64,000 nt of DNA, from the NCBI GenBank assembly GCA_049697055.1, contig JBAVVA010000020.1, forward strand, positions 219-64,218, written 5' to 3'. The DNA is from Candidatus Aminicenantales bacterium. Its GTDB lineage: Bacteria > Acidobacteriota > Aminicenantia > Aminicenantales > JAFGAV01. The translations under genes were made by a program, and so were the position numbers. The notes beneath the pieces were generated by a model, which was given only the letters and a program-made list of their open reading frames with translations, had not been told where the DNA came from and did not search any database. Below are positions 3,301 to 62,195 of the stretch, piece after piece; positions within the stretch are counted from its first letter, which is position 1, and every line of letters begins with the position of its first letter.

Positions 3301-3464
3301 ATGTTCTCCCTCACCCGGAATGAGCGGCTCTCTTGAAATATATCTTTTTTGGAATTATCATTTCAATACAAAACTGGAAAGGAAGGAGGGCCTCCCGTGG
3401 ATCCTGTCGGGACTATTCAAGCCCCTGTCGCAAGAACCGCCGCTTATCTTATAAGGAAAAGCAA

Positions 3465-6400
3465 ATGAAAGAGCCGCGCCGTTTAGGCATTGTCATTGTC
3501 ACAGAAGAGAAATTCGGGGAAAAGAAGTGCCTTGGCCCCCGGGGCGCCAAGAAACCGGTCCTGGGGAAAGCCCTCATTTGGCTATGGTTGAGCCTCCTTT
3601 GCCTGACCCCGGCTCTTCAGGCCCAAGAGGAGCCTTTTCAGGTTCGACGCCTGGCCAACCAGGAAGGCCTGTCCCAAAACGCGGTGAATTGGATTATCCA
3701 GGACCGTAAAGGATTCATGTGGATCGGTACACAGGACGGGCTGAACCAATATGACGGTCTCCGCTTCACCGTCTATGCCTCCGACCCGGCGGATCCCAAC
3801 AGCCTTCCCGACGGCAATATCCTGGCCCTCCATGAAGACGGCCAGGGAAACATCTGGATCGGAACATTGGCGGGCGGGCTCAACCGGCTGGATCGGGAAA
3901 CTAGAAAGATAACAAGCTTTCGTCATGAACGAGGAAACCCCAACAGCCTGGCCAACGACCGAGTCACCTCCATTTGCGAAGACAACTCCGGCACCCTGTG
4001 GGTCGGCACTTACGGAGGGGGGCTCGACCGTTTTGACCCAGCTTCAAAAAAATTCACCCATTATCGGAACGATTTAAAAAATCCCAACAGCCTTATTAAT
4101 GACCGCATTAATTGCCTTATAAGGGACAGTTCCGGGCTGCTGTGGGTGGGCACCTTCGACGGCCTTGATCGATTCAACCCCGGCCCAGGAGAATTTGTCC
4201 ATTTCCGGCATGCCCCCCACGACGCCGCCAGCCTCAACGACAACCAGGTTGTGGCCATCTGTGAAGACCGCTCCGGCAACCTGTGGATCGGCACGGAAAA
4301 CGGAGGGCTCAACGAGTATATCCTCCGGGAAAAGCGTTTCATCAGTTTCGGGAATAACCCCCAGGATCCCCTGAGTTTCAGCACCAACAACATCCGCACC
4401 ATCTTTGAGGACTCCCGGGGGTTGATCTGGATCGGCACCAGAAGAGGAGGCTTGAGCCTGTTGAACCCGGAGACGCAGAAGGTCACCCGCTACCGATATG
4501 ATTCGAAGAACCCGAACGGCTTGAGCAGTGATGATATCCGTTTCTTTTATGAAGATAGGACGGGAATGATCTGGATCGGCACATTCGGCGGCGGCCTCAA
4601 TTGTTACAACCCCGCCAAAAAAGCGTTCATTCACTATACCCGCCAAGAGGGCGATCCACAGAGCCTGGCCGGCTATGCCGTTCGGGCCATTTACCAAGAC
4701 AGGTTGGGGAATTTGTGGATTGGGACATTCAACGGCCTGAACCGCTTCGACCCGAAAACGAAGCGATTCAATCTCTATCAATACAACCCGGGAGCCTCCC
4801 AGGGTTTGAGCAGCAACCTGGTTTATTGTATTACCGAAGACAGGCAGGGAGCTTTATGGGTAGGAACTCAGGGCGGCGGCCTCAACCGGTTTGATCCCAG
4901 GACGAACCTCTGGACTCGCTACCTTCATAATCCCAAAAATCCCGGCAGCCTCTCGGACGATATTGTCAACACTATTTTTTTTGATCGGGGCGGAGTGCTC
5001 TGGGTGGGGACTCTTTTGGGGCTGGACCGATTCGATCGCAGCAAAAACAGTTTTTCCCATTGCCAGAACGATCCGAATGACCCGGCCAGCTTGAGCGACA
5101 ATGACATCCGCGTTGTTTACGAAGATAGGTCGGGGAAGATGTGGATTGGGACCCGCAACGGCGGGCTCAATGCCTTCGACCGTTCTACTGGGAAATTCCG
5201 GCGCTATCTGCACGACCCGGAGAATCCCCAAAGCCTGAGCAACAACTGCATCTTCTGCATCTACGAAGACCGCTCGGGAATCATCTGGCTGGCCACCAGG
5301 GGCGGGGGGCTGAACCGCTTCAACCCGGCCACGGAAACCTTCAGCCATTATACGGTCAAGCAGGGCTTGCCCAACAACGTGGTCTACGGCATTCTCGAGG
5401 ATGACCCGGGGAATCTGTGGCTGTCCACCAACAGAGGGTTAGCCTGTTTCAACCCGAATACTCAAAAATTCAAGAAATACGACGTCCGGGACGGGCTGCA
5501 GAGCAATGAGTTCAATTTCGGGGCTTACTGCAAGACCAAAAACGGAGAGATGCTCTTCGGCGGCATCAACGGCTTCAACATCTTTCACCCCTCCGACCTC
5601 AAGGATAATCCTCATATTCCGCCGGTGGTGATCACGGATTTCCAGATCTTTAACAAGTCGGTCCCCCTAGGCCAGGGGCCGGGCGGGCGCCCCATCTTGA
5701 AAAAGTGCATCACCGAATCGGAAGCCGTCGCGCTTTCCTATAAAGAAAACGTTTTTTCTTTCGAATTCGCGGCCCTGGATTTCATCATGCCGGATAGGAA
5801 TGAGTACGCCTACAAGATGGACGGTTTCGAAAAAGATTGGAATTACGTGGGCCAACGGCATTTTGTGACCTATACGAATCTGCCGCCGGGCCGTTATGTC
5901 TTCAGGGCCAAGGGCTCCAACAACGATGGGGTCTGGAACGAAGAAGGCGCGGCCCTGAAGATCACCATCACCCCTCCCTTCACCCAGACGATTTGGTTCA
6001 GGGGCGGGGCCATCCTGGCCGGCCTCCTCCTCATCCTTTCTTACATCCAGCTGAGGACCCGGGCCATTCGGCAGAAAAATATCCAATTAGAAGAGAATGT
6101 TCAAGAACGCACCTCGGAGCTTCAGAAAGAAATCCAGGAGCGCCGGCAGGCCGAGCAGATCATACAGAAAGAAGCGGCCAAACTGGGAGCGATGATCTCG
6201 GGCATGGAAGAAGGGATCCTCTTGGCCGACCCTCATGATCAGATCCTGGAAGTCAACGGCTACTTCCTCAAGCTTTTGGGCAAGAAAAAGTCCGAGTTGA
6301 TCGGAAAGCCTCTTTGGGATTTCGACCCCTTCCAGGAAGCCGGCGATTTGAGGAAGGATATCCAGGAATTCAAGGAAAAGCCGAATTCCAGCGCCGTCGT

Positions 6401-8108
6401 CAAGGAAGCGCCCTTCCGCGGGCTGGAAACTATTTTCCGGCTTCAGCCGGTCTATCTCAACGGCCACTACGAGGGGTTTATTTTCAACCTGATTGATGTG
6501 ACCGAGCTGGTCCTGGCCAAGAAGGAAGCCCAGGCCGCCAGCCGGGCCAAGAGCGAATTCCTGGCCAACATGAGCCACGAGATCCGAACTCCCATGAACG
6601 GGATATTCGGAATGACCGAGCTGGCCCTGGGCACGGAGCTCACTCCGGAGCAGCGGGAGTACCTGGAAGCCATAAAGACTTCCTCCGAATCCTTGATGAA
6701 CATCATTAACGACATTCTCGACTTCTCCAAAATCGAGGCCAAAAAGTTCGAACTCGATCCCGTCCAATTCAATCTCCGGGACACGATCCATAACATTATT
6801 TCCGTTATGGCCATCCAGGCCGACAGGAAAGGCCTGGAACTGGCTTACTCCATTCCGCCGGATATTCCGGACCGGGTGATCGCCGATCCCGGACGACTCC
6901 GCCAAATCCTGACCAACCTCATCGGCAACGGCATCAAATTTACGGCCAAGGGAGAAGTGATTGTGACTTTGGAAAAAGGCGAGCAGACGCCCTCCGGCAC
7001 GTTGATCCATTTCAAGGTAAAGGATACAGGAATTGGAATCCCCCCGGTCAAACAAAAGATGATCTTCGACCCCTTCATGCAGGTGGACAGCTCCATATCG
7101 CGAAAATACGGGGGGACGGGCCTGGGCCTGGCCATCACCTCCCATCTGGTCGAGATCATGGGCGGAGAAATATGGGTGGAAAGCGAGCTCGGGCGAGGCA
7201 GCACTTTTCATTTCACCGTTCAGATGGGGCTGGCTCAGACTCCGGAGGTGGAGTTGAAACCCGTGGAATTCAAGGATATCAAGGACCTCAGAGTGCTGGT
7301 GGTGGACGACAACGCCACCAACCGGCAAATCCTTCAAGAGATGCTCACCAACTGGCAGATGCTGCCGGCCGCGGCGGAAAGCGGAATCCAAGCGCTGACC
7401 ATGCTGGAAAGCTCCAGCACCCTGGGCCAATCCTTTCCCCTTATTCTTCTCGACGCCAATATGCCCGAAATGGACGGCTTCACTTTTGCCCAGAGAATCA
7501 AACAGGATCCCCGATTTTCCAGCATTCTCATCATGATGATCAGTTCCGCCGGCATCCGCGGCGACGCCGCCCTCTGCCGGAAACTGGGTATTTCCGCCTA
7601 TCTGACCAAGCCGATCAAGCAATCGCTTCTTCTGGACGCCATCCTGCTGACGCTCGGAACGACCGCCGAAAAACAAGAAGCCCTGCCCTTGATCACCCGT
7701 CATTCTCTACGTAAAGCCGGCCGTCCCCTAAAAATTCTCGTGGCCGAAGACAACATCATTAACCAAAAGATGACCGAGCGCGTCCTCCAGAAATATGGTC
7801 ATAGCGTCAAGATTGCCCAAGACGGCGTTGAGGTGCTGTCCCTCCTGCCGACCGACACTTTCGACCTTATCCTGATGGACGTCCAGATGCCCAACCTGGA
7901 CGGCTGCCATACGACCATGGCCATTCGCCAAGAGGAGAAAAAAACGGGCACTCATATTCCCATTGTGGCCATGACCGCCCACGCCATGAAAGACGACAAA
8001 GAACGCTGCCTGGCCTCGGGCATGGATGATTATATCTCCAAGCCCATCAAGCCGGAATTCCTGATCGAAGTGATCAATCGGGTGATCGTGCGAAAAGAGA
8101 CCTTCTAG
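3465..8108 (+). CDS. Hybrid sensor histidine kinase with periplasmic double beta-propeller (two-component-regulator propeller repeats + Y_Y_Y), TM, coiled coil, PAS, HisKA, HATPase and two receiver domains
   Basis: Start at ATG 3465 (RBS aaggaaa). Signal-like 'LIWLWLSLLCLTPALQAQ'. More than 14 repeats of 'DxxGxLWIGTxxGLNRFD'. H-box 'HEIRTPMNGI'; G-boxes 'GNGIKFT', 'GGTGLGLAI'. Two REC domains (asp pockets 'LLDANMPEMDG', 'LMDVQMPNLDG'). Confidence 0.85.
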   Translation: MKEPRRLGIVIVTEEKFGEKKCLGPRGAKKPVLGKALIWLWLSLLCLTPALQAQEEPFQVRRLANQEGLSQNAVNWIIQDRKGFMWIGTQDGLNQYDGLRFTVYASDPADPNSLPDGNILALHEDGQGNIWIGTLAGGLNRLDRETRKITSFRHERGNPNSLANDRVTSICEDNSGTLWVGTYGGGLDRFDPASKKFTHYRNDLKNPNSLINDRINCLIRDSSGLLWVGTFDGLDRFNPGPGEFVHFRHAPHDAASLNDNQVVAICEDRSGNLWIGTENGGLNEYILREKRFISFGNNPQDPLSFSTNNIRTIFEDSRGLIWIGTRRGGLSLLNPETQKVTRYRYDSKNPNGLSSDDIRFFYEDRTGMIWIGTFGGGLNCYNPAKKAFIHYTRQEGDPQSLAGYAVRAIYQDRLGNLWIGTFNGLNRFDPKTKRFNLYQYNPGASQGLSSNLVYCITEDRQGALWVGTQGGGLNRFDPRTNLWTRYLHNPKNPGSLSDDIVNTIFFDRGGVLWVGTLLGLDRFDRSKNSFSHCQNDPNDPASLSDNDIRVVYEDRSGKMWIGTRNGGLNAFDRSTGKFRRYLHDPENPQSLSNNCIFCIYEDRSGIIWLATRGGGLNRFNPATETFSHYTVKQGLPNNVVYGILEDDPGNLWLSTNRGLACFNPNTQKFKKYDVRDGLQSNEFNFGAYCKTKNGEMLFGGINGFNIFHPSDLKDNPHIPPVVITDFQIFNKSVPLGQGPGGRPILKKCITESEAVALSYKENVFSFEFAALDFIMPDRNEYAYKMDGFEKDWNYVGQRHFVTYTNLPPGRYVFRAKGSNNDGVWNEEGAALKITITPPFTQTIWFRGGAILAGLLLILSYIQLRTRAIRQKNIQLEENVQERTSELQKEIQERRQAEQIIQKEAAKLGAMISGMEEGILLADPHDQILEVNGYFLKLLGKKKSELIGKPLWDFDPFQEAGDLRKDIQEFKEKPNSSAVVKEAPFRGLETIFRLQPVYLNGHYEGFIFNLIDVTELVLAKKEAQAASRAKSEFLANMSHEIRTPMNGIFGMTELALGTELTPEQREYLEAIKTSSESLMNIINDILDFSKIEAKKFELDPVQFNLRDTIHNIISVMAIQADRKGLELAYSIPPDIPDRVIADPGRLRQILTNLIGNGIKFTAKGEVIVTLEKGEQTPSGTLIHFKVKDTGIGIPPVKQKMIFDPFMQVDSSISRKYGGTGLGLAITSHLVEIMGGEIWVESELGRGSTFHFTVQMGLAQTPEVELKPVEFKDIKDLRVLVVDDNATNRQILQEMLTNWQMLPAAAESGIQALTMLESSSTLGQSFPLILLDANMPEMDGFTFAQRIKQDPRFSSILIMMISSAGIRGDAALCRKLGISAYLTKPIKQSLLLDAILLTLGTTAEKQEALPLITRHSLRKAGRPLKILVAEDNIINQKMTERVLQKYGHSVKIAQDGVEVLSLLPTDTFDLILMDVQMPNLDGCHTTMAIRQEEKKTGTHIPIVAMTAHAMKDDKERCLASGMDDYISKPIKPEFLIEVINRVIVRKETF

Positions 8109-8118
8109 CCGGAGGCCG

Positions 8119-8631
8119 TTAACCCAGTAAAATATTTTGAAGCGTCTGTTCGGCTTCTTTCATCCTGAAATCAACAACGGGCGCGGGGGGAAGGCCGAGA
8201 GAAGCGAGCAGGGAGGCCAGGATGGTCTCCCGGACGACAAGGAGCGTGGGCCCGGCCCGCACGGCCAAGGCCATGTCCAGCGCTTTCCGCACTCCGCCAC
8301 CCTGAAGCTCGAGGGGCCCCACCTCGTCCACGGCCAGGAGGCCGGTCAAGGGTGCCCGGCGAATGATCCCTACGGCCCGGCGCAGGCCTTGCGGAATAAG
8401 AAGGAAGGGACCGACCTTGGGCCAGCTCGGCCGGCCTTCTCTTCTTAAGAACGGCAGACGGCCGCCCGCCCCAAGGTCAACCAGGTCATATCCTTCAACC
8501 CTGCCCCCTGACCAAAGGGCCGGGGTCGCATAACCCCCGACCTGAAGACCGCCGTCTTGAAGCTTGGGGATGACTTTCCGGAGAAAGGTTGTCTTGCCCG
8601 CGTGGAGGGGACCGGTCAGGATCGCGATCAT
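8119..8631 (-). CDS. THEP1-like P-loop NTPase
   Basis: Internal ATG (MIAILTGPLHAGKTTFL = Walker A), 'LLAVDEVGPLEL' Walker B; ~170 aa as in the THEP1/NTPase_1 family. The longer upstream start would overlap the secretin by 140 nt. Confidence 0.5.
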   Translation of the reverse strand: MIAILTGPLHAGKTTFLRKVIPKLQDGGLQVGGYATPALWSGGRVEGYDLVDLGAGGRLPFLRREGRPSWPKVGPFLLIPQGLRRAVGIIRRAPLTGLLAVDEVGPLELQGGGVRKALDMALAVRAGPTLLVVRETILASLLASLGLPPAPVVDFRMKEAEQTLQNILLG

Positions 8632-8656
8632 ACTCGACCAATGGAACAGGGACCGA

Positions 8657-10798
8657 CTAGCGCACCACCACCCGGGCGTTTCGGGTGGTGAAAGAGACGA
8701 CCTGTCCGCCGGGGCCGTTAGCCGTGACGCCGCCGATGGAGATCTGTGTCTCGCCCGGATTGACCGTTTCAAAGAGGAGAACGGCCAGATTCCCAACGGC
8801 CTTGATCCCTTTGCTCAAATCCGTGCTGGAAATGCCGATGGTGCAGGCGCCCGCGGCATTATCCACGTTCTTGAGAAATGGCGCGTTCTCGCCCAACTGC
8901 TTGACCAAGGGGCCTTCGACCACATCCTTGAGCTTGATGACCTGGCTGTTGAAGTTGAGGTTCAGGGAGAGGTTGCCCACCGGCTGGGCGCTCTGTATGT
9001 TGACCGTAATGCGGAACTCCCCGCGGTTGCGGGACAGCTCGAAATTGGCCGGGCTGAGCACGATCTGATTTCCGCTTTCATGCCCGGCCTCTTCGGGACG
9101 GGGCGGCCGGAGCCGGCTGAGGAGCTCCCGTTCCATGTACTGTTCGTCCGCCTGCGGTTCCCCGGCCGGGGCGCCGGCCTCCTTGATGTCCACCCACAGG
9201 GCCTTGCGGTCCTCGGGGGTCAGGGGGACCCGCCGGATGATATAGGGCGTGATCATCAGAATAACGTCCGTCTGCTCGAGCCGCGTGTCCTCGGAGGAGA
9301 AGAGCCGGCCCAGGAGCGGCAGGCTTTTCAGGCCGGGAATGCCGGTGATGGATTTGCGCTCTTCATCCCGGAGCAGGCCGGCCAGGAGGTTGGTCTCGCC
9401 GTCCCTCAGCCGGAGGACGTTCTTGATCTCCCGGGTGGTGATGATGGGGATGTCGGCCACACCCGTCCCGCCCAGGGAGGTGATCTTCAGCTCCAGGTTG
9501 AGGGTGACCTCTCCCTCCAAGTGAACCTGGGGGGTGATCTTGATGTCGATGCCCACGTCCTGATAATCGTAATTGGTGATGGGCTGCTGGCTGACGCCGC
9601 CCGCGGCGATGGGGGCAAAGGTCGTTTTGGGGATGGGCACCTTCTGGCCGACCATAGACTTCATCTCCTCGCCGCTCAGCCCCCTCAGCCGGGGCTGGGC
9701 GATGATGCGGGTGTCGGCGTCCGATTCCAGGAACTGGAGAAAGGCCAGGGGCAGGGTCAGCATGAAATTCCCGGCCTTGCTGAAGTCCAGGTCCTTAAGG
9801 TTGACCCAGCTTGTCCCTCCCGCGGCCGGGGGTTCGCCGTAGCGCAGGCCGACGATGCTCTGGTCAAAGCTGAGGCCGAGCTGCCGCATCCTGATACGCG
9901 ACACTTCCATGATCTCCAGGTCGATCAGGACCTCGGCCTTGGGCTTGTCCCATTGGCTGAGCAGCCGCCAGGCCAGCTCCACCGTCTCCGGCGTGTCGCG
10001 GACGGTGATGGTGTTGAGGGACTTGTCGGCGAAGACCTTGGACGCTTTGAATGAGCTGGAGATCATTTGCTGCAGGGGTTGGAGGGCCTCCTCGGCCTTG
10101 ATGTTGGACAGGTAGAAGGTTTTTATGGCGTTCATCTCGTACTGGATTCTCTTCATGGGCTGGTCGGGCACGATGATGACCGACCGTTCGTCGATGAGCC
10201 GGTAGAAGTTCTTGGTGGCGATGCACAGGGCCGAGAGGGCCTGCGCGAAGGTGACCTCGGCCAAGTTGATGGAGAAGGGGATATCGCGGAAATTCTCATC
10301 GAAGAGGATGTTCACGCCGGCGGACCGGCCCAGGGCCAGGAACAGGGAGCGGAGGCTCGTCTCCTGGGGAAAATTCAGGGTGACGACTTCGTTCCCGGCC
10401 CGAAGCTTGAAGGGCAGTTCCAGCTTCTCCGGAGCCTGGTTCTCCACCTGCTTGGGAGTCTCGCCCAGGCGGCGGATTTCCTCCAGCAGGAAGCGGTTGG
10501 ACGGATCGTAGGCGCGGGCCTTGGCATATTCGGCCAGGGCCTCCTGGATCTTGCCCTCACCGGCCAGGCGGCGCCCCTGAAGGATGTATCCCAGGCTGGC
10601 GGCATACTTGACCCGGGCCATGGCCAGCCGATAGACGGGCTCCTTGGGATCTTCCAGTGCCGCCGCCTCATAGAAGCGAATGGCTTCGGCCCAGTTCCGG
10701 TTGAGCTCAGCCTGGTTCCCCAGCTTGTAGGAACGGTTGAACGTGGCGCATCCCCATAAGCTCAACATCACAGCTGCCAAAAGGACGAACCTCTTCAT
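8657..10798 (-). CDS. pilQ: Secretin (PilQ/GspD family) lipoprotein with TPR N-terminal region and C-terminal extra beta-sandwich (cohesin-like) domain
   Basis: Lipobox 'LSLWGC'; TPR-like 'WAEAIRFYEAAALEDP...EALAEYAKARAYDP'; secretin hallmark 'ETNLLAGLLRDEERKSITGIPGLKSLPLLGRLFSS...VILMITPYII'; ~200-aa C-terminal extension after the secretin domain. Confidence 0.85.
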   Translation of the reverse strand: MKRFVLLAAVMLSLWGCATFNRSYKLGNQAELNRNWAEAIRFYEAAALEDPKEPVYRLAMARVKYAASLGYILQGRRLAGEGKIQEALAEYAKARAYDPSNRFLLEEIRRLGETPKQVENQAPEKLELPFKLRAGNEVVTLNFPQETSLRSLFLALGRSAGVNILFDENFRDIPFSINLAEVTFAQALSALCIATKNFYRLIDERSVIIVPDQPMKRIQYEMNAIKTFYLSNIKAEEALQPLQQMISSSFKASKVFADKSLNTITVRDTPETVELAWRLLSQWDKPKAEVLIDLEIMEVSRIRMRQLGLSFDQSIVGLRYGEPPAAGGTSWVNLKDLDFSKAGNFMLTLPLAFLQFLESDADTRIIAQPRLRGLSGEEMKSMVGQKVPIPKTTFAPIAAGGVSQQPITNYDYQDVGIDIKITPQVHLEGEVTLNLELKITSLGGTGVADIPIITTREIKNVLRLRDGETNLLAGLLRDEERKSITGIPGLKSLPLLGRLFSSEDTRLEQTDVILMITPYIIRRVPLTPEDRKALWVDIKEAGAPAGEPQADEQYMERELLSRLRPPRPEEAGHESGNQIVLSPANFELSRNRGEFRITVNIQSAQPVGNLSLNLNFNSQVIKLKDVVEGPLVKQLGENAPFLKNVDNAAGACTIGISSTDLSKGIKAVGNLAVLLFETVNPGETQISIGGVTANGPGGQVVSFTTRNARVVVR

Positions 10799-11367
10799 AT
10801 GTTTTCTCCCTTGATGGAGATCGTTTTCGTCTGGCCGTCCGGGCCGGCCAGTTCCAGGGTCTCGGGGCTGATTTTCAGGACAGTGTAGTCGCCGGCCACC
10901 CGGTCGCCCTCGGCCACGGCCAGGGCTTGGCCGTTCACCAGGACCAGCCCGACGATCTTCCGGGCCGTTGTGACAAAGCCGATATAGCGGATATCTGGGC
11001 CGACGGATTCCGGCACGGCCTTGTCGGAGGGAGTCTCGACCTGGGGCGGGGCCACGTTGGCCGGCGGCCCCGGCTCGACGGCTGCTCCTCCGCCGCGAAC
11101 AAAGATGTTCCGCCTCGGCCGCACCTCCGCAGGCCGGGGCTTCACCAGCAGGTCCTTGCGGATGAGGCTTTGGCCGGGCGAAAGTTCCGTCGTTTTAACC
11201 TCCCGTTTGTCCACCGACCCGGCCAAAAGCAGCCCGCCTGCAAGTATTATCAGAATTCCAAGACATACTTCATCTTTCAACCTATTAAAGAAGCTTTTCT
11301 TTTTCCGTAAGGCATCCGTATGAAAAAAGTGGACGGCTGGCGCGAAAAAGCGATCCTTATATCGCAT
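10795..11367 (-). CDS. pilP: PilP/GspC-like inner-membrane pilus/secretion assembly protein
   Basis: Single TM 'LGILIILAGGLLLAG', Pro-rich linker, C-terminal beta-domain 'IGFVTTARKIVGLVLVNGQALAVAEGDRVAGDYTVLKI'; ATGA overlap with the secretin start. Position matches pilMNOPQ order. Confidence 0.55.
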   Translation of the reverse strand: MRYKDRFFAPAVHFFHTDALRKKKSFFNRLKDEVCLGILIILAGGLLLAGSVDKREVKTTELSPGQSLIRKDLLVKPRPAEVRPRRNIFVRGGGAAVEPGPPANVAPPQVETPSDKAVPESVGPDIRYIGFVTTARKIVGLVLVNGQALAVAEGDRVAGDYTVLKISPETLELAGPDGQTKTISIKGENI

Positions 11368-11917
11368 AGTAAGCCGCCAGTGTGATTTTCAAGAGGAGGT
11401 TTCCGCTGCCCGTATCGATATTGAGAAAGTTGATCCTTTCCACAAAAAGAAAACGGGGCTGCTTTTCAACCTCGGCCAGAAATTGCTTAAGCAGCCCGTA
11501 GGATCCCGAAAAATTGAAACTGACCGCGACCTTGCGGGCTTTCTCTTTTTCAAACTCTAAATAATCGAACTTGGCCTGAGGGAATTCCAGGCCTACCCCG
11601 CTGAAGACCTCCTGGAGGTCGAGGCGCAGTTCATTGATGCCGTTTGATTCCCGGTAGAAACGGTCCTGGCGCAAAGCCAGGCCGTCCCGGCCGGCCTCTT
11701 CCCATTGGGAAAACTCCTGCCGGAGGGCGGTTCTTTCCCGGTCGGCCGATTGGAACTGCCGGCGCAGGGAATTCACCGCCGATACCCGTCGGCTGAAGGC
11801 CCCCCCCGCCGCCAGGGAGAAGGCCAGCAGGAATACCAGCAGCGCCCCCAACAGCGCAGACAAGCCGGCCAGGATTTTCCGCTCCCCGGGCTCTAAAAAT
11901 TTAACGAGTTCCTTCAT
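11357..11917 (-). CDS. pilO: PilO-like pilus assembly protein
   Basis: Start at internal ATG (MKELVKFL) 4 codons from the pilN stop; N-terminal TM then coiled coil; position between pilN and pilP. Confidence 0.55.
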   Translation of the reverse strand: MKELVKFLEPGERKILAGLSALLGALLVFLLAFSLAAGGAFSRRVSAVNSLRRQFQSADRERTALRQEFSQWEEAGRDGLALRQDRFYRESNGINELRLDLQEVFSGVGLEFPQAKFDYLEFEKEKARKVAVSFNFSGSYGLLKQFLAEVEKQPRFLFVERINFLNIDTGSGNLLLKITLAAYYAI

Positions 11918-12467
11918 AGACCACCGAGATTTCAGATTCCAACTGACCGTAGCCGTTCTTCCCCTCGCTGATGAGTCGGATGCTGGAAAACCCGCGGGCA
12001 TTCAGGTTCTGGATAAAGGTCAGCAGGTCGTTCAGGCTCTGGAAAACGGCCGTCATCGTCACTTCGGCTTTCGAGCCTCCGCTGAAAGCCGGGCTGAGCG
12101 AAGTGACGGCGCCCGAGGCGGGCAGGGCTTCCTCCAGCCGAGACAGGAGGCCGACCCAGGAAAAGCTCTTGCGCAGAATGAGGTCGTTCATAAAATCTAC
12201 CTGGGCCTTTTCCTTCTTGGACAAATCCAGGGCTCGGGAGCGGAAGCGGGACGATTCGAACCGGGCCGACTCCATAGAGCGCTCCAGGCCGGCCGACTCG
12301 ACGGCCAGCCGGCGGCTCCTGACCTCCTGGCGGATAAAGCTCCAGCCGGCGACAAAACCGACCCCCACCACCAGAACCAACAAAAGGGCCAGCAGCGCCC
12401 GAAAGAGGCGCTTGTTCTGCAGCGGCTGGCTGGCCAGGTTGATGCGGATCGTGCGGTTGTTTCTCAT
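11901..12467 (-). CDS. pilN: PilN-like fimbrial assembly protein
   Basis: 'MRNNRTIRINLASQP' N-terminus typical of PilN, single TM 'ALLALLLVLVVGVGFVAGW'. Confidence 0.6.
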   Translation of the reverse strand: MRNNRTIRINLASQPLQNKRLFRALLALLLVLVVGVGFVAGWSFIRQEVRSRRLAVESAGLERSMESARFESSRFRSRALDLSKKEKAQVDFMNDLILRKSFSWVGLLSRLEEALPASGAVTSLSPAFSGGSKAEVTMTAVFQSLNDLLTFIQNLNARGFSSIRLISEGKNGYGQLESEISVVYEGTR

Positions 12468-13396
12468 GCCCAATATCCAAGAAGCGGCGCCAGAAAATGC
12501 CTCTCCCGGGAAGTCAAGCCGAAGGAGGCCGGAGGCTCGAGGGTGCGGACGGGCAGGGGAAGCTTTTTCTGAAAAGCCTCAGCCAGGGCCGAGACGTCGG
12601 CCCCCAGGCCCCCTCTCAGCCACAAAGTCTTGACCGTCTTCTTCTCCCGGTCCTCAAGATAGGTCAGAGTGCCGGCCACCTCCTTGATGACGCTGTTCTC
12701 CAGGCTGTGTCCAGTCGGCCCGGATTCGGCCAGGTAGGGTTTGAAACGGTAGAGAGCCGGCTCTCCCTCCAGCACGGCCAGCAGGCTGACCGCATCCTCC
12801 TCGACATTGGCCAGGAGGACGTCCTTCTCCCTGTCCCTGTCCAGGAGGTTGAACAGTCCCAAAGTGGGAAGGCCGACGCTCCGGACCTTCAACCCCCCGG
12901 CGGCAAACACATTCTCAAACTCCCCGATGACGGCCGGCCGGGCTACGGAAATGAAGACGCGCTGGAGAGAGCCGTTGCCCAACAGGTCGAAGGACAGCCG
13001 GACGTCTTCCGGCAGGGAGGGCATCTGTTTTTTCAGCCTCCATAGGAGAAGCTCCCGTCGCTCCTCGGCTGAGGCCGGAAATTCATCGAAGGTGAGGATA
13101 AAGCTCTTCAGGCAGGATTCGGGCACCAAGAGGGCAGCCTCTCGGACAGCCGGTTGCGTCCGGCGCAGGGCTTCTCTGATCTTTTCACCCAACTCCGCCG
13201 TGTCCTTGATGTTGGGACGTTCGAAAGAAGGCACCACAGCGCCCGGCTTCAAGGCCAGCAGGGCTTGGCTTCTGGCCCGGCGCTCACGGCCCGGGGCGTA
13301 CAGACAGCTCAGGCTGCGTCCCGTCAGCATGAAGGACAGGGAGAGAACCGGGCCGCGGGCGAAATAATCTTTCAGGCTGTCCAACAGGCCGCTCAT
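12464..13396 (-). CDS. pilM: PilM/GspL-cyto-like actin-fold pilus assembly protein
   Basis: 310 aa cytoplasmic protein directly upstream of pilN with ATGA overlap; order M-N-O-P-Q. Confidence 0.55.
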   Translation of the reverse strand: MSGLLDSLKDYFARGPVLSLSFMLTGRSLSCLYAPGRERRARSQALLALKPGAVVPSFERPNIKDTAELGEKIREALRRTQPAVREAALLVPESCLKSFILTFDEFPASAEERRELLLWRLKKQMPSLPEDVRLSFDLLGNGSLQRVFISVARPAVIGEFENVFAAGGLKVRSVGLPTLGLFNLLDRDREKDVLLANVEEDAVSLLAVLEGEPALYRFKPYLAESGPTGHSLENSVIKEVAGTLTYLEDREKKTVKTLWLRGGLGADVSALAEAFQKKLPLPVRTLEPPASFGLTSRERHFLAPLLGYWA

Positions 13397-13400
13397 CGGT

Positions 13401-15011
13401 TCACTCCGCGAAGGTCACCTTATTCAGCTCTTTCAGGCTGGTCAAGCCTTGGAAAACCTTGTCCATGCCCACTTCTCTGAGAAAGACCATGCCCTCCGCC
13501 TTGGCCCGCTTTTTCACCTCGGATAGGGGCTTGCGCTCCAGGATCATTTCCCGAATGACGTCCGACAGCTCCAGCAGCTCGGCGATGGCCGTCCGGCCGC
13601 GGTAGCCGGTCATCCCGCACTCGGCACAGCCCCGGGTTTCGAAGAAGGCCTGCCGGCGCGATTTCTCCGGGCTCAGCCCGGACTCGGCCAGCAGGGCCTC
13701 ACTGGGCTTGACCAGCGCCTTGCACTGCGGACAGAGGAGCCGCACCAGACGCTGGGCCAGGATGCAGTTCAAGGCGGAGATGAAGCTGTAGGGGTCCACC
13801 TGCATGTGGAGGAAGCGGCCGATGACGTCGAAGACGTTGTTGGCGTGGACGGTGGTGAAGACCAGGTGCCCGGTCAGGGCGGATTGAATGGCGATCTGAG
13901 CCGTCTCCGGGTCGCGGATCTCGCCCACCATGATCTTATCCGGGTCGTGGCGCAGGATGGAGCGCAGCCCCCGGGCGAAGGTAAGGCCCTTCTTCTCGTT
14001 GACCGGAATCTGGGTCAGGCCCTCAATCTGGTATTCGACCGGGTCCTCGATGGTGATGATCTTGTCCTCGGGGCTCTTGATCTCGGTCAGGGCGGCGTAC
14101 AGAGTCGTGGTCTTGCCGCTGCCGGTGGGGCCGGTGACCAGGATCATCCCGTAGGGCTGGACGATGTAGCGGCGGAATTTCTGCAGGATCTCCGCGGAAA
14201 AACCCAGCAGATCCAGGCGCAGCTCGGCGAAGGCTTCAGTGATCATCTCCTTGTCCAGAATACGAATCACCGCGTCCTCGCCGAAGATGGCGGGCATGAT
14301 GGAAATGCGGAAGTCTATGGTCTTGTCCTTGATGCGGAGCCGGAAGCGGCCGTCCTGGGGGACCCGCCGCTCGGCGATGTCCAGTTCGGCCATGACCTTG
14401 ATGCGGGTAATGATGGGCGAGTGGAACTTCCGGTCGACAGGCTCCATGGCCTCGCTGAGGACGCCGTCCACGCGGTATTTGACCCGGACGCCCTCTTCCC
14501 GCGATTCGATGTGGATGTCCGAGGCCCGCTTCTGAACGGCGGTGAAGATGATGGTGTTGACCAGCTTGATGATGGAGCCGTCCTGGTCGGCCAGCTTCTC
14601 GATGGAGATGACCTCCTCCTCCTCACCCCCCTCCTTCTCCACGATCTGGGTGATGAACCCCTCGGTGGCGTCCTTGAGAACCTGCAGGGCGGCCTCGCTC
14701 CTGCGCAAGGCCTCGTGGATGGCCCGCTTGGAAGCGGCGAAAACCTGAACCTTGCGGCCCAGGAAGGACTCCACGGCGTCGATGGTTTCGATGTCGGAGG
14801 GGTCGGCCACCGCCACCTGGACGGCTTGGCCCTCCCGGCCGAAGGGGATGAAGTTGGCCCGGTAGAGGAAGTCCGGGGGGAAGGACTGGACCAGCTCCCG
14901 GTCAAGCGAAACCCGGCCCAAATCCACGGTCGGGACATGATAGCGCTCGGCCAGCTTTCTGACCTCCTTCTCCTCGGAGAGGAGGGTCGTCTCTGTTTCC
15001 TTTTTAGCCAT
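13401..15011 (-). CDS. pilB: Type II secretion / type IV pilus assembly ATPase (GspE/PilB family)
   Basis: Walker A 'GPTGSGKTT', Asp box, His box 'TGHLVFTTVHAN', tetracysteine 'CPQC...CAEC'. Confidence 0.9.
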   Translation of the reverse strand: MAKKETETTLLSEEKEVRKLAERYHVPTVDLGRVSLDRELVQSFPPDFLYRANFIPFGREGQAVQVAVADPSDIETIDAVESFLGRKVQVFAASKRAIHEALRRSEAALQVLKDATEGFITQIVEKEGGEEEEVISIEKLADQDGSIIKLVNTIIFTAVQKRASDIHIESREEGVRVKYRVDGVLSEAMEPVDRKFHSPIITRIKVMAELDIAERRVPQDGRFRLRIKDKTIDFRISIMPAIFGEDAVIRILDKEMITEAFAELRLDLLGFSAEILQKFRRYIVQPYGMILVTGPTGSGKTTTLYAALTEIKSPEDKIITIEDPVEYQIEGLTQIPVNEKKGLTFARGLRSILRHDPDKIMVGEIRDPETAQIAIQSALTGHLVFTTVHANNVFDVIGRFLHMQVDPYSFISALNCILAQRLVRLLCPQCKALVKPSEALLAESGLSPEKSRRQAFFETRGCAECGMTGYRGRTAIAELLELSDVIREMILERKPLSEVKKRAKAEGMVFLREVGMDKVFQGLTSLKELNKVTFAE

Positions 15012-15017
15012 ATCCGG

Positions 15018-16226
15018 TTATCTCGTTATCTTTATTATATTAAAAATGGGCAGGTAAACGGAAAGGAGCATGGCCGCCACGAGAAGCCCCATGACGATGA
15101 TGAGGACCGGCTCGATCAGGGAGACAAAGGTATCCACCCGCGAGCGGACCTCTTCGTCATAGACATCCGAGACCTCGGACAGCATGCCCTCCAGGTTGGC
15201 CGAGGACTCGCCGATACGGATCATGTCAATGGCCAGGGAGGGGAAAAAGCCGGCCTTGACCAGGGAATCAGAGAGGTTCTGGCCGTTTTTGATATCATCC
15301 GGGACGCCGGCTACTCGGTGGACCAGGAAGCGGTTGGGAATGGCCCGGCAGGAAATGACCAAGGCCTGAATGAGCGTAATGCCGGCTCCCAGCAGGAGCC
15401 CCATCGTCCGGGAAAATAGGGAAACGCCTGACTCGATCCAGATCCGCCTGGCATAGGGAAGGCGGAGTTTGATACGGTCGAGCCAGACGCGGTTCCTCTC
15501 CCTCCGCTTCAACCAGAAATAGGCCGCCCCGAGAAGAACTCCGAACAAGAGGAGGAAGAGCATGGAACGCCGGATGGCCAGGGCGGCAGCCATGATCCAG
15601 CGGGTAATCCCCGGCAGTTCGGACCGGAAATCGGCATAGAAACCGGAAAAGCGGGGCAGGATGAAATTAATGAGGACCATCATCAGGGAGAAGGAAAAGA
15701 CCAGAAGCAGGCTGGGATAGATCAGGGCCGACCGGATGCGGGACTTGGTCTTGTTGATGTCCTTGGCATAATCCGTGTAGCGGTTGATGGCCTGGGCCAG
15801 GTTGCCGCTCTGCTCGCCGGCCATCAGGGAAGCGGTGTAGACTGTGGAAAAACGGTCTTGAAAAGGAGTGAAGGCCTCGGACAGGGTCCTTCCGCTGCGC
15901 ACATCGTCCGCCACCCGCAAGAGGACCTCCTTCATGTTCTGGTTCTTGGTCCGGCTCATGATAAGCTCCAGGCTCTTGAGGACCGGATAGCCGGCCCGCA
16001 GCAGGTACATCAGCTCCTGGTTGAACAGGATGAAATCCTTTTCCCGCACCCGCCGGTCCAGGCTGGAGAGCGAGAGCTGGACCTTGCCCCAATCCTTGCG
16101 GACGGACAGGACGCACAGGCCGCGGGACTCGTAATATTTGCGGCATTCTTCGCGGGACGGCGCCAAGCAGGATTCTTTGATCAACCGGCCGTCATCCGTG
16201 GCTAAGCGGCAGAGGAAATAAGGCAT
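15018..16226 (-). CDS. pilC: Type II secretion / type IV pilus platform protein (GspF/PilC family)
   Basis: 402 aa, duplicated T2SSF domain with three TM segments, 'LIEPVLIIVMGLLVAAMLLSVYLPIF' C-terminus. Confidence 0.9.
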   Translation of the reverse strand: MPYFLCRLATDDGRLIKESCLAPSREECRKYYESRGLCVLSVRKDWGKVQLSLSSLDRRVREKDFILFNQELMYLLRAGYPVLKSLELIMSRTKNQNMKEVLLRVADDVRSGRTLSEAFTPFQDRFSTVYTASLMAGEQSGNLAQAINRYTDYAKDINKTKSRIRSALIYPSLLLVFSFSLMMVLINFILPRFSGFYADFRSELPGITRWIMAAALAIRRSMLFLLLFGVLLGAAYFWLKRRERNRVWLDRIKLRLPYARRIWIESGVSLFSRTMGLLLGAGITLIQALVISCRAIPNRFLVHRVAGVPDDIKNGQNLSDSLVKAGFFPSLAIDMIRIGESSANLEGMLSEVSDVYDEEVRSRVDTFVSLIEPVLIIVMGLLVAAMLLSVYLPIFNIIKITR

Positions 16227-16412
16227 AAGATAAAGATTACCTCATTAAGAAACTCGATGGCTCGTCTTTCTGTTGCCAGCTGTTGCTAGGAAATCTCCAT
16301 GTTAGGGGAACCAGGGGCTGTTGTCAAATTCATGAAACAGCTTTAGATCTGGCAAATTGGAGATTCCGCCGAATTGGTTGACAAACCTGATGGAAAGCCT
16401 TAATTTTAGAGT

Positions 16413-16703
16413 GTGAAAAGAAAGGCATGTCTGGCGGCCTGCTTCGTGGCAGCCCTGGGGCTGGCCTCCCTCCTCTCCCCTCCCCAGAGGCCGACGACGC
16501 CGAAGGGTGGGGCCTACTCCGGCGTTTTGCAGGCCCAGGAAAACGTCCCCGCCCAGAAACCATCATTTGATTATATGAGCACCTTTCTATCCCGCAACAC
16601 CAAGCCCTTGGGGTTGGAGGAGGACAAGGAGGTCAAAAAGCTGAAGCAGCAGCCGGCCATCAAATGGGCCGTCCGGTCCAGCCTGCGTCATTCGCTTCAA
16701 TAG
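16413..16703 (+). CDS. Small secreted hypothetical protein (GTG start)
   Basis: 96 aa, signal peptide 'KRKACLAACFVAALGLASLL'; putative sigma70 promoter TTGACA-N17-TAATTT upstream. Confidence 0.3.
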   Translation: MKRKACLAACFVAALGLASLLSPPQRPTTPKGGAYSGVLQAQENVPAQKPSFDYMSTFLSRNTKPLGLEEDKEVKKLKQQPAIKWAVRSSLRHSLQ

Positions 16704-19602
16704 GATATTTTTTTTGCATAATGGGTTCAATTTTTTGGATTTGATACGATGAACAAACGTCTCACCTCCCTGGCCATCCCTCTCATCCTCATTCTCCTCG
16801 GCCTGGGAGGGTTCAATATCTATCGCCGCGTCACTTGGAAAGAACCGACGGACGGAGTGCAGTGGGCGGAACGGTCCACCGGCCTCATCGCGGTCAAGGT
16901 CATCAGAGACAGCCCGGCCTATCTGTCCGGGATCAAACTGGGCGACATCCTGTTCAAGATCAACGGCAATCCGGTCAAGAACCGAGCCGACCAGGTTAAG
17001 CTGCTGTGGGTGATCTACCAAACGGGCCAGAAGGCTATCTACGAGATCGGAAGGGAAGGGCAGCCTCCCCTGTCCCCTTCCTTCTATCTGGCCGTCAAAG
17101 GCACGGCTTTGAGCTATTATTATCTGGCCCTGGTGGGGCTCACCGCCTTCGTCATCGGACTTGTCGTCCTGTTCAGCGCGAAATCCCCTTTGACCCTGCC
17201 CTACATTTATTTCTATCTGGCCTCCCTCTGCTTGTATGCCATGTATATCTTCTCTCCCACCGGCCAGCTCGACACATTCGACAGCCTCTTCTTCTGGCTG
17301 GATAAGCTGGCCTTCCTGTTCTTTCCGCCCCTTCTCTTCCACTACTTCAGCATCTTCCCCCAACGGAAGAGGTTTCTAAAGCGCCTGCCCGCCCTCCCCA
17401 TCGTCTTCTACATCCCCGCCCTGCTCCTGCTGGCCGGCCAGGCAGCCCTATTCCTCCCCTGGTTCCAGGGCCTGGAGTCGGGGCGGATGCTGGACCTTTA
17501 CGGCGGGCTGGATAAGATCGGGCTTCTCCACTTCTGCGCTTTCGCCCTGCTGACCATCGGCACGACTTATCACAGCGCCCGCCGCACCTCGAGCGTCCTG
17601 GTCCGCAAGCAGTACACCTGGATCGCTTACGGCCTGGGCATCGGCACCATCCCCTTCCTGGCCTTGGACGCCATCCCCCACCTTGTGGGCCGGGTGCCCA
17701 CGGGCACCGGCGAGCTGACCATCCTCTTTCAGGCGCTCATCCCATTGACCGTGGCCTATTCCATCTCTCGGCATAAAATCATGGATTTCGAGATCGTCCT
17801 TAAAAAGGCCGCCACCCTGGCTTTTTCCTACTTCGTCATCGCCAGCCTCTACCTGGTAGTCAGCTCCCAGACGAGATTTTTCTCCGAAAACCGGCTGAAC
17901 GTGGTCATCCTGGGAGTGCTGGCCATCGTCCTGGGGGCCACGCTTTTCGGCCCGCTGAAAAAGCTCTTTCAGTCCATTCTCGACCGAGTCTTTTATAGGC
18001 GCAGCTACAAGTACCGAAAAACGCTTCTATTCATCAGTCAGGAGTTGAGCCGGGAGCGCAACCTTCAGCAGCTCAGCCAGCGGCTGCTGGAACTCATCGC
18101 CAACGCCCTATCCTTGAAAGGCATCGCCCTGCTGCTGACCGAGGAGAAAGTGCCCCATGCTTTCTCCCTCCTCCAGGCCAGGGGAGAATTCCCTCCCCTG
18201 CCCTCCCGGATCATCCTCGACCCGGACCTCTTCCAGTCCTTCAAGGAATCGGAGCATTTGTCCTACTACGCCTTCCCCGACCGGCGCGACCTTCGCTTCC
18301 GCCTGGAGAAACTATCGGTGTGGGGCTTCTTTCAGTTCATGCCCCTCAAGGTCGAGGACAAGTTCATCGGCTGCTTGGCCATGAGCAAAAAAACGAATGC
18401 CGCCTACCTCACCAGCGAGGACTGGGAGCTGCTGACTACCATCTCCTACCCGGTGGCCTTGGCCCTGGAGAACGCCTATCTCTACGACCAGGCCAGCCTG
18501 CGGACCATGGAAATGGAACGGCTCAAGGATTACAGCGAGAACATCATCGAAAGCCTGACCGTGGGCGTGGCCGTCCTCGACCAGGAGGGAAAAATCATCG
18601 GCTGGAACCGGGTCCTGGAAGAGACCTTCCTCCGCCGGAAGGACAGCGTCCTGGGGCAGAGCCTGTCGGCCATGATCGGTGAGACGAACTTCTCGGCCAT
18701 ATTCCTCCCCGACACCCAGCAGGAGTACCAACTGCTGAGCGAGATCCGCATGGACATCCGTCCCGGCTTGACCAAGATCTTCGACATCGCCAAAACCCCT
18801 CTCCTGGACAACCGGCTCAACCCCTACGGCACGATCATCGTCTTCGAGGACATCACCGACAAGATCATGCTTCAGCAGCAGCTGATAACCTCGGAGAAAC
18901 TGGCCTCCATCGGGCTGCTGTCGGCCGGCGTGGCTCACGAGATCAACACGCCCTTGACCGGCATCTCCAGCTACGTGCAAATGCTGCAGAAAAGGCTGAC
19001 CGATCCCCATTTCGCCCAGATCCTGGAGAAAATAGAGGCCCAGACCGACCGGGTGGCACGGATCATCAAAAACCTGCTCAACTTCGCCCGGAACCCCTCC
19101 GGGATCGCCTTCAGCCGGGTCAACCTCATCGACAACCTGAAGGAAATCCTGGCCCTCATCGAGTATAAACTGAAGGCCATGAACATCCGGCTGGAATTCA
19201 ACTCCGCGCCGCTGCGGCCCATCTGGGCTCAAGGCGAGCGGCTGCAGCAGGTCTTCATCAACATCATCCTCAACGCCCTGGACGCCATGCCCGAGGGCGG
19301 CATCCTGCGCCTCGACATCAGTCAGCAGAACAGCGAGGCCCTGGTGCGCATCGCCGATACGGGCACGGGCATCAAGAAAGACCACCTGCCTCGGATCTTC
19401 GACCCCTTCTTCACCACTAAGGGTCTGGGCAAGGGAACCGGGCTGGGGCTGTCCATCAGCTATGCCATCATTAAAGAACACGAGGGTAGGATCACCGTGG
19501 AGAGCCTGGAGGGCAAAGGCTCGACCTTCAGCGTGGTGCTGCCCATGGACTTGGACGTCCGACGCCGGCATCCGGAAAACTCTCGCCCTCAAGGAACAAA
19601 CC

Positions 19603-20991
<1,389 letters not shown>

Positions 20992-26845: not shown

Positions 26846-27074
26846 TTTGAGTTCTTTTATAGGTTGAGTTCGTATTTATCGGTTGAGAAGAGGAGTCATA
26901 CATTCTTAGCCTAGCGGTTTCTCCGCACCTTCAGGCGGGGGGAAGCGGCTCTTTCTCCGGCCTGAAATCAGCCTTCTCTGTTCGATTTCCAGCCCGGGCT
27001 CTATTCCCTCTGGCCCCCAGCCTCTGCCGCAGGGGGAATCAAGCTTGAGCCATATTGCCGTGGGAGGGATAGCG

Positions 27075-27548
27075 GTGCACGTCGAAACACAAAAAGTTAA
27101 GAAAATCCTGGCCGAGCATAAGAACCAGAAAAAAGCGCTCATCCCCATCCTCCAGGACATCCAAGCCGAATACAATTATCTTCCCCCCGAGGCCTTGAAG
27201 ATCGTCTCCCAAACCCTGGCCCTTCCCTTGATTGATGTGGTCGGTGTGGCCACCTTTTACCGGGCTTTCAGCTTAAAGCCTCGGGGCCAGAATGTGGTCA
27301 CGGTCTGCCTGGGAACGGCCTGTCACGTGAGAGGGGGGCCGAAAATTCTCGATGAATTTGAAAAAAAGTTGAACATCAAAGCTGGCGAAACGACAAAAGA
27401 CAATCACTTTACCCTGGAAATCGTCAACTGCCTGGGCGCCTGTGCCCTGGGTCCCATTACCGTCATCAATGGAAATTATTTCGGGCAGATGAAGATCAAA
27501 AACGTTGACCGCCTGATCAAGAAATTCGGCCCGGCCAAAAGGAGTTGA
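27075..27548 (+). CDS. NuoE/HoxE-like thioredoxin-fold [2Fe-2S] subunit (24-kDa subunit family)
   Basis: GTG 27075 with RBS gggaggga 5 nt upstream (TTG 27045 is an alternative start); 'ALIPILQDIQAEYNYLP', Cys ligands 'CLGTAC...CLGAC'. Confidence 0.8.
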   Translation: MHVETQKVKKILAEHKNQKKALIPILQDIQAEYNYLPPEALKIVSQTLALPLIDVVGVATFYRAFSLKPRGQNVVTVCLGTACHVRGGPKILDEFEKKLNIKAGETTKDNHFTLEIVNCLGACALGPITVINGNYFGQMKIKNVDRLIKKFGPAKRS

Positions 27549-31395: not shown

Positions 31396-31463
31396 AGCCA
31401 GGAAGCAAGCGATGCCCACGACTGGCTTGATCATAGACGGACACCAATAATAAGGAGGTCATC

Positions 31464-62080: not shown

Positions 62081-62195
62081 GTTTATTAAGAGACAGGCGT
62101 CCTAAAACGAGGACAAGGTCTGCTATCATTTAAGAGTTCTTTTCATTCAATATTTGGCATAAAAAATGCTTATTAATATGCCGAGGAGGGGAAAG

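Follow-up and report, generated by a model that had tools for sequence, protein, structure and literature searches.

The DNA examined here is a stretch of 64,000 nucleotides (the window) from a Candidatus Aminicenantales bacterium (contig JBAVVA010000020.1), and our subject is a cluster of eight genes at positions 8119-16226 of its minus strand. We found that in this uncultured Aminicenantes (Acidobacteriota) organism the cluster is probably a core operon for assembling a type IVa pilus (T4aP)-type machine, the remaining parts of which are encoded at other loci. The original prediction, made from the sequence itself, had described eight compact, co-directional genes forming a single operon for an inner-membrane platform, an assembly ATPase, PilMNOP and a secretin, and had offered either a type II secretion system (T2SS)-like machine or a type IV pilus with its pilins elsewhere. 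The layout was borne out by the list of open reading frames (ORFs) together with Pfam and NCBIfam annotation, and the single operon was supported by gene content and by the gene junctions. Between the two readings the evidence favoured the second, on account of the split PilM and PilN, the PilP protein, the affinities of PilB and the PilX/PilY1 clusters in related genomes. Single-sequence matches in Pfam and NCBIfam named six of the eight genes, PilN and PilP having no such match; family profiles, built from 38 orthologues of each protein and compared with the PDB, were more decisive than single sequences for PilM, PilO and PilP.

Both the PilC-type platform and the PilB-type ATPase of a T4aP were observed at the head of the operon. 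The platform is a protein of 402 residues (15018..16226; this and all following operon genes on the minus strand) with two Pfam T2SSF domains (173 bits), and its closest solved relative was PilC of Myxococcus (3jc8, 193 bits). The assembly ATPase, with 536 residues (13401..15011), matched T2SSE (431 bits) and MshEN (71 bits), carrying an MshEN/T2SSE_N domain at its N-terminus and a CxxC...CxxC motif. Among solved relatives it aligned over its full length with PilB of Geobacter (430 bits) and scored 416 bits against PilB of Myxococcus, while the alignment with GspE (369 bits) started only at residue 141. The RLGxx..G..L..Q repeat of MshE was not seen by eye in the N-terminus, and we make no claim about cyclic di-GMP binding.

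The alignment proteins were encoded next, with a separate PilM and a bitopic PilN in place of a fused GspL. The divergent PilM (310 residues, 12464..13396) is cytoplasmic and contains no membrane segment; as a single sequence it had no match in Pfam and reached TIGR01175 at E=9e-11, below the cut-off. Its family profile matched PilM of Myxococcus (3jc8, 2e-6) and of Thermus (2e-3), and comparison by hhalign with the PF11104-positive PilM of a distant operon gave a probability of 99.65% (E=5e-25, 275 columns). The PilN-like protein (188 residues, 11901..12467) carries the motif IRINLASQP near its N-terminus, ahead of a single membrane helix, and residues N10, L11, A12, P15 and N18 were near-invariant among the 38 orthologues; the overlapping ORF at 11932-12480, in another frame, is spurious. 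PilO and PilP were recognised by their family profiles, with single-sequence scores below cut-off. The PilO/GspM-like protein (186 residues, 11357..11917) starts at M29 of the listed ORF, its orthologues beginning at MKE, and it matched T2SSM_b (26 bits), PilO (19.9 bits, below cut-off) and GspM_XpsM (E=1e-7), while its profile matched PilO of Myxococcus (3jc8) at 1.4e-3. The PilP-like protein (190 residues, 10795..11367) consists of a membrane anchor or signal, a SLIRKDLL motif and a C-terminal beta domain, with no PDZ domain; the single sequence gave only E=0.12 against the NCBIfam model pilP_fam, and the profile matched PilP of Neisseria (4av2_M, 1.3e-5; 2ivw, 2.5e-5).

The secretin (713 residues, 8657..10798) is identical to NCBI protein MGB9004295.1, from a Candidatus Aminicenantales metagenome-assembled genome (MAG), and matched Pfam Secretin (126 bits), Secretin_N (46 bits) and TPR_2 (27 bits). 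From its N-terminus it comprises a lipoprotein signal (LWGC, Cys17) and a TPR module at residues 22-112 (10463-10798), the N0 and N1 domains at residues 139-283 (9950-10384), the secretin core at residues 287-524 (9227-9940), a linker at residues 532-575 that was disordered in the AlphaFold2 model, and a cohesin domain at residues 578-713 (8660-9067; Pfam Cohesin). The model had a mean predicted local distance difference test (pLDDT) score of 69, with 75-90 for the domains, and showed N0 with one N domain and, at residues 578-712, a C-terminal beta-sandwich. No AMIN domain was found in the secretin by Pfam. The secretin profile matched GspD and Neisseria PilQ about equally, the latter aligned over residues 136-521.

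All eight ORFs are intact and closely spaced. By their coordinates, pilC and pilB are separated by a gap of 6 nt and pilB and pilM by one of 4 nt; pilM/pilN and pilP/secretin each share a 4-nt ATGA overlap, pilN and pilO overlap by 17 nt and pilO and pilP by 11 nt, and a gap of 25 nt lies between the secretin gene and the last gene of the cluster, which encodes a THEP1-like NTPase. A sigma-70-like promoter (TTGACA-17-TAACAT; 16299..16327, minus strand) was located roughly 73 nt before the ATG start codon of pilC and was the sole minus-strand promoter-like site in 7900-16900. An equivalent arrangement (TTGACA-N17/18-TAnnnT) preceded pilC by 37-121 nt in 56 of 59 related loci, far above the chance expectation of about 1.5 sites per 9 kb over both strands. 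An Rfam search of 7900-17000 returned no match at E<=0.1.

Relatives were sampled as one-genome-per-species contigs, of which 347 were confirmed by tblastn, and the best 80 loci were examined; every one of these 80 was Aminicenantes-type. The order pilC-pilB-pilM-pilN-pilO-pilP-secretin was found in at least 59 of the 80 and was invariant among them wherever the flank sufficed. Together with its promoter and neighbours, the operon was kept across many species at protein identities of 48-97%, and the relatives included a complete sibling chromosome of 3.18 Mb (OY969762.1) with a secretin 97% identical to that of the window. More remote genes for TPR-secretins, some with the cohesin domain, were observed in an identical gene order, a portion of them in records named Acidobacteria or candidate division B38, and in two of these remoter loci PilM reached Pfam PilM_2. 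A neighbour-joining tree of the secretins split the loci into two clades: the clade of the window, with the NTPase after the secretin and no pilin cluster within reach, and a sister clade, with tilS directly after the secretin, which contained all of the pilin clusters that we found. Many public MAG records with an Aminicenantes-type locus (L002, L005-L007 and others) are titled 'uncultured Eubacteriales bacterium' or 'Clostridiales bacterium', which are probably placeholder or wrong taxonomic labels.

The original prediction had reported no pilin, prepilin peptidase or retraction ATPase in or beside the operon, and this absence was found to extend to the whole window by a six-frame signal-peptide scan, by phmmer and by searches with Aminicenantes queries. 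No class-III signal peptide was observed in any of the six frames of the 64 kb, phmmer found no second T2SSE-type ATPase, platform or secretin there, and PilD, minor pilins and PilY1 of Aminicenantes had no match in it. The called genes of the remaining window were housekeeping genes only by Pfam.

Pilin genes were observed close to the operon in relatives. Among the 44 loci with at least 9 kb of downstream sequence, 16 contained N_methyl prepilin genes, located 2-9 kb downstream of the secretin gene and sharing its strand. These sister-clade clusters included matches to N_methyl, PilX_N and T4P_PilY1 (PF05567, 62.8 bits), and the cluster at locus L022 consisted of five genes encoding FimT/GspH-like, PilV-like and PilW-like prepilins, a PilX_N protein and a 1,218-residue FG-GAP/PilY1 protein. 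No minor-pilin/PilY1 cluster was found for the window's own clade.

A prepilin peptidase gene was observed 3.7-9.8 kb downstream in four relatives (L004, L023, L033 and L048) and, outside the window, in the same species. The flank to the left of the window was read on a conspecific JGI contig (96.5-97.8% DNA identity to the window over 10 kb), reached through homology searches and covering about 20 kb. Proceeding outward, this flank encodes CbiX, a Maf/methyltransferase fusion, DUF5916, tilS, asparagine synthase, a large membrane protein, four small genes and then PilD (A24_N_bact, 119 bits; Peptidase_A24, 68 bits), which lies 12.8-13.6 kb beyond the window's left end and about 21 kb from the secretin stop. 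Pilin genes immediately outside the window, which the original prediction had named as counting against it, were absent from the roughly 20 kb past the left end, where PilD was present. In several relatives the PilD gene was preceded and overlapped by a gene for a 288-residue TPR protein (L087, 4410-7715; L048, 17654-21076; also L023 and L033), and ABC-2 transporter genes also adjoin it in L087 and L048; this conserved PilD-TPR unit shows no obvious connection with pilus biology.

It is usual for T4aP systems to have their genes spread over several loci (Denise et al. 2019, PMC6668835). Because multi-locus encoding is normal for these systems, because PilD is present on the conspecific contig about 13 kb outside the window and because pilin clusters lie near the operon in relatives, we regard the missing genes as a matter of locus layout. 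The suggestion that a machine without pilin, peptidase and PilT is an oddity was therefore not upheld.

A working model follows from the established T4aP scheme, to which the roles of PilB, PilC, PilMNO and PilP are owed; what was observed here is which genes are present, that they are coupled and that they are conserved. One sigma-70-type promoter would drive the genes for PilC, PilB, PilM-PilN-PilO-PilP and the secretin as a coupled unit. PilB would power PilC so that pilins processed by PilD are pulled from the inner membrane and added at the base of the fibre, while PilM would clamp the cytoplasmic N-terminus of PilN. PilNO and PilP would span the periplasm and link the inner-membrane motor to N0 of the secretin, and the fibre would exit through the secretin ring. 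Pilins, prepilin peptidase and any retraction ATPase would be supplied from other loci.

The foremost alternative is a T2SS variant, in which a short pseudopilus would push out folded proteins, such as the glycoside hydrolases of a saccharolytic member of the Aminicenantes, and no retraction ATPase would be needed. The ATPase, platform, O/M protein and secretin are homologous to those of the T2SS with comparable family scores, and the source records label the secretin 'general secretion pathway protein D'. NCBIfam and Pfam models for the T2SS scored slightly higher than those for type IV pili with the platform (NCBIfam GspF 277 bits, PilC 249 bits, both under their equivalog cut-offs), with the secretin (GspD TIGR02517, 155 bits with a cut-off of 351; PilQ TIGR02515, 112 bits with a cut-off of 284) and with the O protein, yet every T2SS equivalog cut-off was missed by a wide margin. 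None of the parts that set the T2SS apart was observed: the locus contains no GspC, no fused GspL, no GspD with N0-N3 and no pseudopilins GspG-K, nor was a pseudopilin operon present in the window. The P protein instead matches PilP and lacks a PDZ domain, pilM and pilN are separate genes with a 4-nt overlap (the PilM product having no membrane helix), the secretin has N0 and one N domain without N2/N3, and PilB aligns full-length and better with T4aP PilB than with GspE. In the sister clade, genes for the T4aP-specific PilX_N protein and PilY1 beta-propeller also cluster within a few kb of the operon. Denise et al. (2019, PMC6668835) treat gspC as mandatory in their T2SS model. We consider the T2SS reading unlikely, and to this extent the T2SS-like option of the original prediction was not supported.

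Several observations nonetheless weigh against a T4aP-type machine. In addition to the higher T2SS scores for secretin, platform and O protein in NCBIfam, no protein of the operon reached a T4aP equivalog cut-off. PilN had no statistical match in Pfam, NCBIfam or the PDB, its profile included, and its assignment therefore rests on motif, topology and position. The major pilin was not located in the 64 kb of the window or in the left flank of about 20 kb. Across 66 loci, no PilT-like second T2SSE ATPase was found up to 10 kb from the operon, an absence that also fits a T2SS and makes retraction and twitching putative. In the distant locus L083, two GspG-like prepilin genes (12540-13405, containing KEAVLKTDLFRMRDAIDQYYADKGKYP) begin 17 nt after the TPR-secretin gene, so that filament subunits are part of the operon in that lineage. 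Lastly, the pilotin-like and docking functions that we propose below for the outer modules of the secretin are putative, and no dockerin-like motif was found in the window.

A further alternative was a T4aP machine whose main task, as in Thermus thermophilus, is DNA uptake in natural competence and not adhesion or twitching. The secretin profile also matched the V. cholerae competence PilQ (6w6m) and HofQ models, the PilM profile matched the Thermus 'competence protein PilM', and the secretin is without AMIN domains. These matches to competence proteins were no better than those to proteins of motility pili, and comEA, comEC and dprA were not among the annotated genes of the window, while genes for PilY1-type adhesins beside the operon in relatives suggest adhesion. 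A main role in DNA uptake appears very unlikely. That the operon is an orphan, decaying remnant whose pilin, peptidase and PilT have been lost is hardly credible: all three are absent from the 64 kb window, but the eight ORFs are intact and translationally coupled, the operon, promoter and neighbours are conserved at 48-97% protein identity over many species, and PilD is present in the same species.

Compared with the T4aP of Myxococcus xanthus and Geobacter, the operon encodes an identical set of core proteins, and the closest solved PilB, PilC, PilM and PilO are from these systems. A histidine kinase and a sigma-54 regulator adjoin pilC here, much as pilS and pilR are located by the pil genes in Geobacter and Myxococcus. 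The operon differs in having no pilT or pilA in the cluster and in uniting C-B-M-N-O-P-Q in one transcription unit; its secretin has TPR and cohesin domains and no AMIN domain, its PilM is too divergent for Pfam PilM_2, and its neighbouring kinase has PDZ and GAF domains. In the T4aP of P. aeruginosa and Neisseria, pilMNOPQ form an operon, while pilBCD, pilT, the fimU-pilVWXY1E cluster and the pilotin PilF/PilW are found at separate loci. The present system shares this multi-locus character, the translationally coupled PilMNOPQ block, the profile match to Neisseria PilP and, in relatives, a minor-pilin and PilY1 cluster as a separate unit. Unlike in those systems, pilB and pilC are joined to the pilMNOPQ operon, and the TPR lipoprotein module lies within the secretin chain rather than in a separate protein, its pilotin role being putative.

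The secretin is a structurally novel component that combines a lipid anchor, a TPR module and a C-terminal cohesin domain without an AMIN domain, and in this it departs from the PilQ proteins studied so far. The HxcQ secretin of P. aeruginosa is a lipoprotein and is described as 'self-piloting'. The present secretin resembles HxcQ-type secretins in bringing its own lipoprotein signal, with a Cys17 after LWG that was invariant among homologues; it differs from them in having TPR repeats after the lipid anchor and in belonging to a T4aP-like machine and not to a T2SS, and any self-piloting is putative. The lipid anchor and TPR module may act as a built-in pilotin-like targeting module. The T4aP pilotins PilF, PilW and Tgl are outer-membrane TPR lipoproteins. 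Such pilotins carry six TPR repeats (PMC10653833), whereas the secretin module has 2-3.

The identification of the C-terminal domain as a cohesin was supported both by its family score and by its modelled fold. The match to Cohesin PF00963 scored 27.2 bits with a gathering cut-off of 24.1, the same annotation was precomputed for most of the secretin homologues, and the domain modelled alone (pLDDT 92.8) had the nine-stranded jelly-roll fold of cohesins. The top 50 PDB matches of this model were all cohesins, with template modelling (TM) scores of 0.66-0.79. As modelled, the C-terminal 136 residues resemble the Archaeoglobus fulgidus cohesin 2xdh (TM 0.76-0.79, root-mean-square deviation 2.7 A, 23% identity). 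In contrast to this non-cellulosomal cohesin and to the cellulosomal type I cohesins, the domain is appended to a secretin at its C-terminal end and is expected to be periplasmic. Ten representatives of 700-870 residues that match the cohesin-type domain at their C-termini were all secretins, nine with TPR and six with a Pfam Cohesin match.

The cohesin domain could serve as a periplasmic docking module for a partner protein. A regular expression for the dockerin calcium-binding loop had no match in the window; in relatives it picked up single loops only, in three PilW-like minor pilins. When two prepilins and PilY1 from relatives were scanned with Pfam, no dockerin family came up at E<=0.01. 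We tentatively put forward, as a possibility that we consider less likely than not, a new kind of self-sufficient secretin in which the lipid anchor and TPR module replace a separate pilotin and the cohesin, tethered in the periplasm by its flexible linker of roughly 45 residues, recruits a partner to the pore. Under this same tentative reading the partner might be a peptidoglycan anchor substituting for AMIN, a TsaP-like ring, or a PilY1/minor-pilin tip complex. If true, it would mark the first time that an assembly step of a type IV filament machine is based on a cohesin. Our literature search found no paper in which a type IV pilus is mentioned alongside both a secretin and a cohesin domain, and nothing relevant on Aminicenantes pili or secretin-cohesin fusions.

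The last gene of the cluster encodes a THEP1-like P-loop NTPase of 170 residues (8119..8631, minus strand). Its membership of the THEP1/NTPase_1 family, as proposed in the original prediction, was supported by PF03266 NTPase_1 (69.7 bits, cut-off 23.9) and by the Walker A (GPLHAGKTT) and Walker B (LLAVDEVG) motifs; against NCBIfam PRK13695 it reached 55 bits, with a cut-off of 156. The start predicted for it at 8796 did not stand, since the longer ORF overlaps the secretin gene and the orthologues are about 170 residues long, and we place the start at 8631 (M56 of the listed ORF, MIAILTGPLHAGKTT). The NTPase gene was next after the secretin in 31 of 61 loci, within 300 nt in 23 of them, and all 31 belong to one secretin clade. 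For this reason we rejected the NTPase as a core component and regard it as a clade-specific, vertically inherited neighbour. It is probably co-transcribed with the secretin and could be a further dedicated accessory of the self-sufficient-secretin machine, although we know of no link between the THEP1/NTPase_1 family and type IV filaments.

A unit of three plus-strand genes is divergent from pilC. It is led by a small secreted protein of 96 residues (16413..16703) with a signal-peptide-like N-terminus and no family match, followed by a membrane histidine kinase of 961 residues (16749..19634) and a sigma-54-dependent response regulator starting at M48 (19603..20991). By Pfam the kinase consists of an N-terminal helix, a PDZ domain, a multi-pass region, and GAF, PAS, HisKA and HATPase domains, and in NCBIfam it had generic kinase matches only. 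The regulator (REC, Sigma54_activat at 233 bits, HTH_8) is PilR-like in its REC, AAA+ and HTH_8 architecture, and its family matches were only to generic NtrC/AtoC-type proteins. The three genes were divergent from pilC in 53 of the 62 loci containing pilC. The small secreted protein adjoined the kinase in nearly all loci, its C-terminal half (YDYMSxFLSRNTKPLGLKED...IKWAIR) being highly conserved, and we infer a functional link to the pilus. Its position beside a kinase with an extracytoplasmic PDZ sensor suggests a ligand-sensor pair.

A connection between the neighbouring sigma-54 regulator and the operon's own promoter was not supported. No -24/-12 element was found ahead of pilC, either in the window or in the 59 relatives examined; control of the operon by sigma-54 was rejected on the lack of a TGGCAC-N5-TTGC-like site and the presence of the conserved sigma-70-like promoter instead. 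The neighbouring regulator would consequently not act at pilC through a canonical site, and by analogy with PilS/PilR the kinase/regulator pair may control a pilin gene elsewhere rather than this operon. In four relatives (L035, L055, L065 and L073), sigma-54 matches preceded the first minor-pilin gene by about 110-290 nt (TGGCATGAATATTGCT in L073). As good matches occurred in 4 of 17 such loci and not in the other 13, they are too few for a claim of sigma-54 regulation of the minor-pilin clusters.

Further features were observed elsewhere in the window. A hybrid histidine kinase of 1,591 residues (3333-8108, plus strand), with Reg_prop beta-propellers, Y_Y_Y, PAS, HisKA, HATPase and two receiver domains, lies in convergent orientation between the NTPase and an aldolase; by phmmer only the closest relatives L001 and L084 have a match, and the gene looks like a lineage-specific insertion. 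At 27045-33041 (plus strand), a fusion protein of 1,053 residues joins a NuoF-like part (Complex1_51K, NADH_4Fe-4S) to a GltD-like part (Fer4_20, Pyr_redox_2) and is flanked by NuoE-like, 2Fe-2S/4Fe-4S and glutamate-synthase-domain proteins, with glutamine synthetase adjoining; this has the appearance of an electron-bifurcating-type NADH oxidoreductase cluster. Towards the right end (59470-64000) the G+C content falls to 0.53-0.56 and BACON/Ig-like, UPF0236 (transposase-like) and FecR/DUF6600 proteins are encoded, and this segment may be mobile or recently acquired.

The main value of this analysis is a negative one, in that the apparently pilin-less machine is best read as an ordinary multi-locus T4aP and does not warrant pursuit as a novel secretion system; the cluster is then an ordinary sub-locus in a poorly studied lineage, with one structurally novel component. 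The lipoprotein-TPR and cohesin secretin offers a natural test case for targeting and anchoring without separate pilotins or AMIN domains. Aminicenantia are an abundant uncultured lineage of sediments and the subsurface, and their pilus core operon is highly conserved and has a constant regulatory unit at its side, which helps to annotate these genomes and to infer their ability for adhesion or DNA uptake.

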